64,000 nucleotides of DNA from Escherichia coli (GTDB lineage: Bacteria > Pseudomonadota > Gammaproteobacteria > Enterobacterales > Enterobacteriaceae): NCBI RefSeq assembly GCF_003334305.1, contig NZ_QOWS01000005.1. One strand, 5' to 3'. The first letter of the stretch is position 1, and the number at the start of each line of letters is the position of its first letter. This document shows, in pieces, positions 32,254 to 37,300 of the stretch. Below the pieces are notes generated by a model, which saw only the letters and a program-made list of their open reading frames with translations, did no database searches and was not told the origin of the DNA. The translations under genes and the position numbers were made by a program.

Positions 32254-33846
32254 ATGGCTCGACTCTTTACCCCTTCAGAATCAAAGTATTACCTGATGGC
32301 GCTGGATGCAGGTACCGGAAGTATTCGGGCTGTGATATTCGACCTGGAAGGCAATCAAATAGCAGTGGGACAGGCGGAGTGGCGGCACCTGGCAGTACCG
32401 GACGTTCCTGGTTCTATGGAATTTGATCTCAACAAAAACTGGCAACTGGCGTGTGAGTGTATGCGCCAGGCGCTGCACAACGCCGGCATAGCCCCGGAGT
32501 ATATCGCTGCCGTTTCGGCATGTTCGATGCGTGAAGGCATTGTTTTATATAATAATGAAGGAGCCCCGATCTGGGCCTGCGCCAATGTGGATGCCAGAGC
32601 GGCACGCGAAGTTAGCGAACTTAAAGAACTGCACAACAATACCTTTGAAAACGAAGTTTATCGCGCGACCGGACAAACACTGGCTTTAAGTGCCATCCCC
32701 AGATTACTTTGGCTGGCGCACCATCGTTCCGATATTTACCGTCAGGCATCAACCATCACCATGATCAGCGACTGGCTGGCCTATATGCTCAGCGGCGAAC
32801 TGGCGGTGGATCCCTCTAACGCTGGCACCACGGGACTTCTTGATCTAACCACCCGTGACTGGAAACCTGCATTGCTGGATATGGCTGGCCTGCGTGCCGA
32901 TATTCTTTCTCCTGTCAAAGAAACCGGCACATTGCTGGGCGTGGTAAGTTCACAAGCGGCGGAACTCTGCGGTCTGAAGGCGGGCACTCCGGTGGTCGTT
33001 GGAGGAGGCGACGTGCAGCTTGGTTGCCTTGGGTTAGGCGTTGTGCGTCCGGCACAAACCGCGGTTCTTGGCGGCACATTCTGGCAGCAAGTTGTAAATT
33101 TAGCCGCGCCGGTGACAGACCCAGAAATGAACGTGCGCGTTAATCCTCATGTTATTCCTGGCATGGTACAAGCTGAATCTATAAGCTTTTTTACCGGACT
33201 CACCATGCGCTGGTTCCGCGATGCTTTCTGTGCCGAAGAAAAACTGATTGCCGAACGTTTAGGCATCGACACCTATACGCTGCTGGAAGAGATGGCCAGT
33301 CGGGTGCCGCCTGGGTCGTGGGGCGTAATGCCGATCTTCTCCGACAGAATGCGCTTTAAAACCTGGTATCACGCTGCGCCTTCCTTTATTAACTTGTCCA
33401 TTGAGCCGGATAAATGTAACAAAGCGACATTGTTCCGTGCGCTGGAAGAAAATGCGGCGATTGTATCAGCGTGTAACTTGCAGCAAATTGCTGATTTCTC
33501 GAATATTCATCCTTCATCGTTAGTCTTTGCAGGCGGAGGTTCAAAAGGGAAATTATGGAGTCAAATTCTCGCTGATGTCTCGGGATTACCCGTCAATATT
33601 CCGGTGGTCAAAGAAGCCACTGCATTAGGATGTGCCATTGCAGCTGGCGTCGGTGCCGGAATTTTTTCATCAATGGCAGAAACCGGAGAACGCCTGGTTC
33701 GCTGGGAACGGACGCACACACCAGACCCGGAAAAGCATGAACTTTATCAGGATTCACGCGATAAGTGGCAGGCAGTTTATCAGGATCAGCTGGGGCTGGT
33801 TGATCATGGACTGACGACGTCGTTATGGAAAGCGCCTGGGTTATAG
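32254..33846 (+). CDS. lsrK: Autoinducer-2 kinase LsrK (530 aa, FGGY kinase family)
   Basis: FGGY carbohydrate kinase motifs ([15 protein letters not shown]). Confidence 0.9.
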
Positions 33847-33855
33847 TTTCATTGA

Positions 33856-33890
33856 CAGCCACATCATGATGACCGTGGCTGTTAGTTTTT
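33856..33890 (+). terminator. Intrinsic terminator after lsrK
   Basis: Stem cagccac / gtggctg followed by ttagttttt. Confidence 0.5.
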
Positions 33891-34376
33891 GAGTATAGTT
33901 ATTCTTATTTCCCTTCTTTTAGAGCTGGCTTGTTAAAAGCCAGCTTGCAGATTCATCGTTCCATCACCAGTACTATATTCAAGGGAAAATTGCTATTTTT
34001 CTTAAAGCATTAAGCACAACCCTTATTTTATAGCGAATATTCCTAAAGACACTAATGGATGCAAAAGGGGTTTAATAAACTTCGATTTTTAGCAATTAGT
34101 GCTATTCTTTGTTAAATATGATGATGATAATTTTCCTATTGAAAGAAACAGTTTTCTTATTAATCAACAATAACTCATAGTTCATTTTTAAATAAAATAA
34201 GAACTATGCATTTTTTAATCTATCAATTCGAAAGTATTAGCAAATTAGCCAAATTGACACCTTCCCACCTCCAACTAACACTCAATACAGACCTCTGACA
34301 ATTTAATAAGTTTCATTTTTAATGTCTGACGACTCATCTCTTTCGTGGCTGTATTGTTTGTATATGGAGCGTTTAT

Positions 34377-37300
34377 ATGAATAGAATCTATCGCGTGATA
34401 TGGAATTGCACTCTACAGGTATTTCAGGCCTGCTCGGAATTAACTCGCAGGGCAGGTAAAACATCGACGGTTAATTTGCGTAAATCCTCTGGACTGACAA
34501 CGAAATTCAGTAGATTGACGCTGGGTGTTTTGCTGGCACTAAGCGGTTCAGCGTCTGGTGCAAGTCTGGAAGTTGATAATGATCAGATTACCAATATTGA
34601 TACTGATGTTGCTTATGATGCCTACCTGGTTGGCTGGTATGGCACTGGAGTGCTTAATATTTTGGCTGGCGGTAATGCCTCCTTAACCACTATTACTACC
34701 AGCGTCATTGGCGCTAATGAGGACTCAGAGGGCACCGTTAATGTTTTGGGTGGCACCTGGCGATTGTATGATAGCGGAAATAATGCAAGGCCTTTAAATG
34801 TGGGTCAATCCGGAACGGGGACGCTGAATATTAAACAGAAAGGTCACGTTGATGGAGGCTATTTAAGACTAGGTTCCTCGACAGGAGGCGTCGGGACGGT
34901 CAATGTTGAGGGAGAGGACTCTGTTCTGACGACCGAATTATTCGAAATAGGGAGTTACGGTACGGGATCATTAAATATTACGGATAAGGGTTACGTCACG
35001 AGTTCAATAGTCGCCATTTTAGGCTATCAGGCGGGCAGTAATGGCCAGGTTGTCGTTGAAAAGGGCGGTGAGTGGCTAATAAAAAATAACGATTCCTCAA
35101 TTGAATTTCAAATTGGTAATCAAGGAACTGGGGAAGCGACTATTCGCGAGGGTGGACTGATTACGGCTGAAAACACGATTATCGGTGGCAATGCTACCGG
35201 TATCGGAACCCTGAATGTGCAGGATCAAGACTCTGTCATCACGGTACGCAGACTCTATAATGGATATTTCGGTAATGGCACACTCAATATTTCCAATAAT
35301 GGACTAATTAATAACAAAGAATATTCATTAGTGGGCGTTCAGGACGGTTCCCACGGTGTCGTCAACGTGACCGATAAAGGGCATTGGAATTTCCTCGGAA
35401 CGGGCGAAGCTTTCCGCTATATCTATATCGGTGATGCTGGCGACGGTGAACTTAATGTCTCGCGTGAAGGTAAAGTAGATTCGGGAATTATCACTGCGGG
35501 GATGAAAGAAACAGGCACAGGCAACATTACTGTTAAGGATAAGAACTCCGTTATCACTAATCTCGGAACTAATCTTGGTTATGACGGCCACGGCGAAATG
35601 AATATCAGTAATGAAGGGCTTGTTGTCAGCAACGGAGGAAGCTCACTCGGTTATGGAGAAACCGGCGTCGGGAATGTCAGCATCACCACGGGGGGGATGT
35701 GGGAGGTCAATAAGAATGTCTATACCACCATTGGTGTTGCGGGCGTCGGAAACCTCAATATTAGCGATGGCGGTAAGTTCGTATCGCAAAATATTACTTT
35801 TTTGGGCGATAAAGCAAGCGGTATCGGCACACTGAACCTGATGGATGCGACATCATCGTTCGATACTGTGGGTATCAATGTCGGTAATTTTGGTAGCGGT
35901 ATCGTAAATGTCAGTAATGGTGCCACCCTTAATTCAACGGGCTATGGATTTATCGGAGGAAATGCCTCCGGTAAGGGGATAGTTAATATTTCAACGGACA
36001 GTCTCTGGAATTTAAAGACATCATCTACTAACGCACAATTGCTACAGGTCGGTGTATTAGGCAAGGGTGAACTGAATATTACCACCGGAGGTATAGTTAA
36101 AGCGCGTGATACACAGATAGCTCTCAATGACAAAAGTAAGGGCGACGTGAGGGTGGATGGGCAGAACTCTCTTCTTGAAACATTCAATATGTACGTAGGG
36201 ACATCTGGTACGGGTACGTTAACCCTGACGAATAGCGGCACGCTGAATGTCGAAGGTGGAGAAGTTTACTTAGGTGTTTTTGAACCTGCTGTAGGAACGC
36301 TAAACATTGGTGCAGCTCACGGTGAGGCGGCGGCAGATGCCGGGTATATAACCAACGCGACGAAAGTAGAGTTTGGTTCTGGCGAAGGTGTTTTTGTCTT
36401 TAATCATACTAATAACAGTGATGCCGGCTACCAGGTCGATATGCTGATTACAGGTGACGATAAAGACGGAAAAGTGATCCATGATGCAGGCCATACGGTG
36501 TTCAATGCAGGGAATACTTATAGCGGTAAAACGCTGGTCAATGACGGCCTCCTGACCATTGCGTCTCATACGGCAGATGGGGTAACGGGCATGGGTTCGA
36601 GTGAAGTCACCATTGCAAGCCCCGGTACGCTCGACATTCTCGCATCAACGAACAGTGCAGGAGATTACACGCTGACCAATGCGCTCAAAGGCGATGGCTT
36701 GATGCGAGTGCAGCTGTCATCCTACGACAAGATGTTTGGCTTTACCCATGCAACAGGGACTGAATTCGCCGGTGTTGCCCAACTGAAAGACAGTACCTTC
36801 ACTCTGGAACGCGACAACACCGCTGCGCTTACTCACGCGATGTTGCAGTCTGACAGTGAAAATACCACATCGGTAAAAGTGGGAGAGCAATCCATTGGTG
36901 GACTGGCCATGAATGGCGGTACGCTCATTTTCGATACGGATATTCCTGCTGCGACGCTTGCAGAGGGATATATCAGCGTCGATACGCTGGTTGTCGGCGC
37001 GGGTGACTACACCTGGAAAGGCCGTAACTATCAGGTAAACGGGACGGGCGACGTGCTTATCGACGTGCCTAAACCGTGGAATGATCCCATGGCGAATAAC
37101 CCTCTGACGACGCTCAATTTGCTGGAACACGACGATAGCCATGTCGGCGTTCAACTGGTGAAGGCGCAAACGGTTATTGGGTCGGGTGGCTCATTAACGT
37201 TACGTGATTTACAGGGCGACGAGGTGGAAGCGGACAAAACGTTACACATTGCGCAAAACGGAACGGTGGTCGCCGAGGGTGATTATGGATTCCGCCTCAC

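Follow-up and report, generated by a model that had tools for sequence, protein, structure and literature searches.

The stretch of Escherichia coli DNA analysed here, a window of 64,000 nucleotides from contig NZ_QOWS01000005.1 (assembly GCF_003334305.1), carries a gene for an ECSE_1600 family autotransporter whose passenger begins with a long array of tandem repeats. We conclude that the array very probably consists of 22 degenerate rungs of about 25 residues, which make up the distal 560 residues of a type Va passenger, and that it is a structural element of fixed copy number. Both the repeat and the protein family are already known and catalogued.

A tandem array of the TIGR04393 family

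What is the evidence for the array, and what is its period? A profile built from 86 double units of about 50 residues, drawn from 15 non-Escherichia homologues with no Escherichia sequence included, recognizes 11 consecutive, abutting double units, that is, 22 half-units of about 25.5 residues, at residues 85–644 of the protein (34629..36308; this and all the other parts of the gene given below lie on the plus strand). The total score is 246 bits, whereas none of 200 composition-preserving shuffles scores above 6.1 bits. The first double unit spans residues 85–128 (34629..34760, 23.4 bits) and is followed by units at residues 140–186 (34794..34934, 38.0 bits), 190–233 (34944..35075, 37.0 bits), 245–289 (35109..35243, 30.2 bits), 293–337 (35253..35387, 35.2 bits), 349–396 (35421..35564, 29.9 bits), 400–444 (35574..35708, 16.7 bits), 451–497 (35727..35867, 25.1 bits), 501–546 (35877..36014, 27.5 bits) and 556–602 (36042..36182, 37.3 bits); the eleventh, at residues 605–644 (36189..36308, 18.4 bits), is truncated and matches profile positions 1–38. 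An earlier profile made from the protein's own 15 regular-expression-anchored units is circular for those 15, and it picked up three further units.

The curated external model TIGR04393 (T5SS/PEP-CTERM-associated repeat, rpt_T5SS_PEPC), which has 49 positions, matches nine stretches of the protein and reaches 180.7 bits, where the cut-off is 23. The units are in tandem at about 49 residues and the host protein is an autotransporter. By its sequence, then, the array is a member of this already catalogued family.

The regular expression G.G.[LVIM][NT][ILV] has 15 matches between residues 89 and 611, spaced at 24, 24, 24, 24, 25, 25, 26, 26, 26, 26, 26, 30 and 30 residues, and at 49–57 residues wherever one more degenerate unit intervenes. 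The mean period of the array is 25.5 residues, or about 76 nucleotides. Rigid autocorrelation is consistent with this value: with BLOSUM62 scores it is best at a lag of 26 residues (z 3.2), while lags 19–21 give z values of 0.3, −0.4 and −0.2, and at the DNA level it is best at 78 nucleotides (z 3.2), with no signal at 57 or 60. The rigid-lag signal is weak because the unit length varies from 24 to 30 residues, and for this reason units were detected by profile. The first-pass annotation of this DNA had placed an array of about 20 units at 34650–36300, nearly exactly where we find it, and the four example peptides that it quoted are present at residues 146, 195, 275 and 456. It had, however, given a period of 19–20 residues (57–60 nucleotides), probably by taking the length of the motif, 16–19 residues, for that of the repeat. 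The period is here corrected to about 25.5 residues, within an alternating double unit of about 50 residues, and the repeat is assigned to TIGR04393.

Each double unit joins two flavours of half-unit. The A flavour reads roughly L-x-V-G-x-x-G-x-G-x-L-N-I-x-x-G-G-x-V and the B flavour roughly I-G-x-x-x-G-x-x-G-x-V-N-V-x-G-x-x-S-x-W. Relatives show this alternation very clearly; in the window protein it is more degenerate, and amino-acid identity between units averages 24%. At E≤1e-3 the array has matches in 3443 cluster representatives, a number that falls to 1474 at E≤1e-10. Six of these relatives were checked; each has 8–15 matched TIGR04393 stretches, as against the 11 double units of ECSE_1600, and the autotransporter barrel model is matched in five of the six. 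The arrangement of a tandem double unit of about 49–50 residues, N-terminal to an autotransporter barrel, is shared with the family. The common consensus of the relatives is LxVGxxGxGxLxIxxGGxVxxxxxxIGxxxGSxGTVxVxGxGSxW. The ECSE_1600 copies differ from it in being more degenerate than those of most relatives (17–38 bits per double unit), in often having Asn where the relatives have Thr (LNI/VNV rather than LTI/VTV), and in frequently lacking GS-x-W. A search of the literature for TIGR04393 found no paper.

The array ends in the motif VGTLNIGAA...FNHT at residues 639–678 (36291..36410). The consensus of the homologue alignment likewise ends in 'GTLNIGxAxxxxAxxAGxL...GxGxGxxxFNHT', and by eye most, though not all, of the printed homologue rows carry the motif. 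Judged from this alignment, the motif may cap the TIGR04393 array or form the transition from it to the remaining passenger.

Array length and DNA similarity between units

Could the units recombine or slip, so that the length of the adhesin varies between strains or within a population? The first-pass annotation raised this possibility, which would make the array a contingency-type repeat, on the ground that the repeats are near-identical in DNA. They are not. In an in-register comparison of 18 units, nucleotide identity averages 38.8% and does not exceed 60%; no exact direct repeat in the array is longer than 10 nucleotides, where codon shuffles give a mean of 10.6; and the best direct repeats, of 23–47 nucleotides, are 70–83% identical. 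Tandem Repeats Finder, run on 33500–38500, reports no match within the array. Homologous recombination or slippage would need far greater DNA similarity than these units have. The program's sole match in that interval is a 9-nucleotide tandem repeat, ATTAGCCAA, present in 2.3 copies at 34236–34255, in intergenic DNA about 120 nucleotides upstream of the start codon.

Array length is likewise invariant. The gene is present in 4364 of 5426 complete E. coli genomes (about 80%), and the 1801-nucleotide array region was surveyed in an even sample of 60 rows from 4174 matching E. coli genomes. Coverage is full in 57 rows, at 95.4–100% identity, and among these the array spans exactly 1801 nucleotides in 52 and 1800 in three, and is interrupted by an insertion sequence (IS) in two; none of the 57 differs by a whole repeat unit. 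No gap is needed to align orthologues at 79% and 76% identity, over 720 and 441 residues, respectively. The exact window protein is found on 1000 contigs or more, and in its protein cluster of 18,868 members, 12 of the 15 listed have 1806 residues. Within E. coli the repeat number is fixed; among distant members of the family, over long spans of evolution, it differs. An invariant repeat number is the very observation that the first-pass annotation had named as fatal to its suggestion of recombinational length variation.

Insertions of IS elements (IS3 family, IS1A and IS2) are seen in or near the array (34600–36400) in several E. coli lineages, and they split the gene into one fragment with the extended signal peptide region (ESPR) and another with the barrel.

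Deletion alleles

The argument for a length-variable array comes from deletions. They occur within the gene in some complete genomes, and large internal deletions exist in public assemblies: among 120 listed matches in a protein collection (P0001–P0120) there are at least 74 distinct large in-frame deletion junctions, 52 of them with their left end in the array. These junctions were mapped by unique 6-mer diagonals, BLASTP mapping being blurred by the internal repeats. The listed matches show no 1806-residue form and so over-represent deletion alleles, and the frequency of deletion cannot be estimated from them.

The properties of the deletions do not point to the repeats. In the five deletion alleles from complete genomes the missing segment lies outside the array, downstream of it, except in one, where it begins at 36078 and extends into the barrel. 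Junction microhomology is essentially lacking and no greater than random, with a mean of 1.07 nucleotides as against 0.77 at random positions. Among the alleles with no microhomology are P0029, which is seen on 24 contigs, P0032 and P0102. Nine junctions have both ends in the array, and none of the nine falls within 1.5 residues of the half-unit register, where chance would place about one. Moreover, the deletion variants that were checked are single-member clusters, in contrast to the 18,868-member cluster that holds the 1806-residue form. Together with the low DNA similarity of the units and their invariant number in the genome sample and in the divergent orthologues, these observations leave the contingency-type repeat close to refuted, and we consider it very improbable.

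The deletions are scattered illegitimate events in a dispensable gene, or short-read assembly artefacts, and do not amount to repeat-mediated length variation. Two junctions examined in Logan contigs are true sequence junctions, with 2–5 nucleotides of overlap and no runs of N, and in many deletion alleles the signal peptide, autochaperone and barrel survive together with part of the array. It is nevertheless very unlikely, if somewhat less so than repeat-driven variation, that the in-frame deletions reflect a real process in which illegitimate recombination repeatedly makes shortened, still exportable adhesin variants. One Logan contig (L008) has two separate deletions in a single gene copy. 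In three of the listed proteins a domain of another kind stands beside the autotransporter N-terminus, namely PF00370 (FGGY kinase, lsrK-type) in P0081 and P0111 and PF07804 (hipA-type) in P0002; these may be fusions with neighbouring genes.

Predicted structure of the array

Residues 55–700 were modelled with AlphaFold2 from a 17-sequence alignment. The model has a mean predicted local distance difference test score (pLDDT) of 90.4, with values of 90 or more in 508 of 646 residues, and a predicted template modelling score of 0.89. The fold is a solenoid made entirely of beta-strands, about three short ones to every 25 residues or so, and within a unit the G-x-L-N-I/V segment is the strand that comes first. 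Model strands 93–99, 103–105 and 108–111, for example, correspond to protein residues 147–153 (TGTLNIK), 157–159 and 162–165. Confidence dips at residues 235–244, 335–344 and 545–554, coinciding with inter-unit stretches that are longer than average.

In a Foldseek search of the PDB the first matches are beta-helical autotransporter passengers: Ag43 (7koh, E 6e-8; 4kh3, 7kob and 7ko9) and TibA (4q1q), then EspC, IgA1 protease and Hbp. The top eight matches all have a probability of 1.00. The suggestion of a parallel beta-helix, made originally from the motif, thus gains from both the fold prediction and its neighbours, and the model supports a parallel beta-helix of stacked three-stranded rungs. 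Most likely, each half-unit would be one three-stranded rung, and from the model we infer a rigid rod of roughly 22 × 4.8 Å, or about 10 nm.

Since the array has its closest solved neighbours in Ag43 and TibA, it might instead be a 19-residue repeat of the AIDA-I/Ag43/TibA type, a substrate for heptosylation that serves in cell-cell aggregation. The period of 19–20 residues first proposed would fit such an assignment, and the C-terminal third of the protein does resemble AIDA-I, with matches to the AIDA-I model NF033176 and to the AIDA-I barrel structure 4mee. Likewise, the passengers of Ag43, TibA and AIDA-I (4kh3, 7koh and 4q1q) are beta-helices of short degenerate repeats, with related barrels and autochaperones, and they are the best structural neighbours of the array. 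However, the array has a period of about 25.5 residues with a two-rung alternation, and lags of 19–21 residues carry no signal; a Pfam scan of residues 1–1200 gives no AIDA-repeat match; identity to Ag43 and TibA in the structural alignments is 13–16%; NF033176 matches residues 1071–1805 alone, with 338 bits where the cut-off is 1200; and no glycosyltransferase or heptosyltransferase of the aah or tibC type adjoins the gene, its neighbours being lsrK and hipB. Repeats of about 19 residues, a sufficient model score and the adjacent heptosyltransferase of AIDA-I and TibA are all lacking, which refutes membership of this group and leaves the reading as an array of this type highly improbable.

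The pertactin and IcsA-type passengers offer a second comparison. They share with ECSE_1600 an AC_1/pertactin-like C-terminal segment, including similarity to the IcsA autochaperone, but in sequence they do not resemble the array: matches in the PDB sequence search are confined to residues 1195–1806, and none falls in the N-terminal array. The pertactin rung, of about 25 residues and three strands, is similar to the half-unit of the array.

Finally, the weak rigid-lag autocorrelation and the low identity between units might be taken to mean that the periodicity is a by-product of a Gly/Asn/Thr-rich composition with no true repeat behind it, a reading refuted, and so improbable as to be negligible, given that same-composition shuffles come nowhere near the observed profile score, that the eleven matches abut in perfect tandem order, that TIGR04393 scores far above its cut-off, and that AlphaFold2 stacks the units with high confidence.

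The host protein and its locus

The array belongs to a complete coding sequence at 34377..39797, defined by its open reading frame and by NCBIfam NF011422 ("ECSE_1600 family autotransporter"), of which positions 1–1806 of 1806 are matched with 4188.7 bits against a cut-off of 2335. The DNA of the gene is 100% identical to that of E. coli strain A7, where the RefSeq coding sequence is WP_001349923.1 and bears the ECSE_1600 name. By these matches the window copy is intact. RefSeq annotation at the identical A7 locus places lsrK upstream and hipB (of hipBA) downstream.

The protein begins with an ESPR at residues 1–47 (34377..34517; Pfam PF13018, E 1.5e-14). C-terminal to the array are a PATR/autotransporter beta-strand repeat at residues 1253–1281 (38133..38219; Pfam PF12951, E 4.2e-05; TIGR02601, 27 bits), which is of another type than the N-terminal repeats and sits in the C-terminal passenger; an AC_1/pertactin-like autochaperone domain at residues 1332–1438 (38370..38690; Pfam PF18883, E 2.8e-26, and PF03212, E 1.3e-10), with the IcsA autochaperone structures 3ml3 and 5ke1 matching residues 1195–1457 in the PDB sequence search; and an outer-membrane beta-barrel translocator at residues 1525–1784 (38949..39728; Pfam PF03797, E 2.3e-42; TIGR01414, 406.6 bits; 4mee, E 5.9e-87 in the same search). 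Signal peptide, passenger, autochaperone and C-terminal beta-barrel thus lie in one polypeptide. By domain order the protein is a classical type Va autotransporter, and export to the surface is predicted.

Many database cluster entries name the protein 'autotransporter barrel domain-containing lipoprotein'. No lipobox cysteine is seen near the end of the signal peptide (LLALSGSASGAS), and from the residues there the 'lipoprotein' label looks like a legacy mis-annotation.

Downstream of hipBA, at 42499–46874, lies a chaperone-usher fimbrial operon with a fimA-like major subunit, a chaperone and an usher, so that the autotransporter stands within a small surface-adhesion gene cluster beside the lsr quorum-sensing operon. 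The G+C content is about 46% in the array (34500–36500), where there is also a strong skew of G over C of about 0.2, 53–54% in the remaining gene (36500–39500) and about 40% in the 530-nucleotide upstream intergenic region. These differences could follow from the codon composition of the Gly/Asn-rich repeat, or they could be a mark of mosaic origin. An Rfam scan of 33500–40500 matched no family, and a mechanical listing of open reading frames gives antisense frames of only 68–99 residues in the array.

The genome paper of E. coli SE11 (PMC2608844) describes the same gene as ECSE_1600, with 1806 residues; it lists SE11 and HS as having an intact copy, MG1655, E24377A and O157 Sakai as having a disrupted one, and B2 strains as lacking the gene. 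The SE11 protein agrees with that of the window in family, in its length and in its position between lsrK and hipB. Unlike the intact window allele, the K-12 and O157 copies are frameshifted; the K-12 copy is presumably the gene named yneO, formerly ydeK/ydeU. It carries one extra base (+1 nucleotide) at gene position 3954 (window 38330, residue 1318), and the O157 copy has an 8-nucleotide insertion at gene position 3983 (window 38359, residue 1328). The two inactivating frameshifts are independent, lie within 30 nucleotides of each other just upstream of the autochaperone, and fall outside the array.

A proposed path of assembly

How would such an array reach the cell surface? We propose, by analogy with the autotransporter family, that the ESPR signal peptide would direct export through Sec, that the C-terminal beta-barrel would insert in the outer membrane, and that the passenger would emerge C-terminus first. 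The autochaperone would fold first and template the stacking of one rung on the next, so that the array would fold last and lie furthest from the cell. Within each rung the conserved glycines would stand at turns and the G-x-L-N-I/V segment would supply the first strand. The array as a whole may act as a scaffold or contact surface of a putative adhesin. In this the protein would resemble the beta-helix passengers of Ag43, TibA, AIDA-I and pertactin.

Several points weigh against this account. The literature search returned no experimental study of the secretion or adhesion of the protein, and for yneO, ydeK, ydeU and ECSE_1600 it brought up nothing beyond the SE11 genome paper and passing mentions. 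The putative adhesin role draws on family resemblance and on the suggestion made for ECSE_1600 from a pertactin motif (PMC2608844). In K-12 and O157 the gene is a pseudogene, so that any function it has is dispensable. On the structural side, the PDB sequence search gives no solved structure that shares sequence with the array, and the handedness of the helix, the equation of one half-unit with one rung and the length of the rod were all read from the DSSP strand pattern of the model. Likewise, the template modelling scores of the top eight Foldseek matches, Ag43 and TibA among them, are low, at 0.22–0.50; their low values for Ag43 and TibA fit the rungs of those two proteins, which at about 19 residues are shorter than those of the array.

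Meaning for the family and for E. coli

The practical value of assigning the array lies in annotation, and it matters little otherwise. The Pfam scan of residues 1–1200 finds the ESPR and a sub-threshold PATR match and no model that covers the array. Annotation based on Pfam, which has no model for the repeat, therefore leaves the N-terminal 600 residues apparently empty, a gap that NCBIfam fills. For the family, the repetition is structural and ancient and does not drive change in copy number. For E. coli, it means that an autotransporter widespread in the species, carried by about four in five complete genomes, has at its N-terminus what is predicted to be a beta-helix of 22 rungs that is fixed rather than variable.

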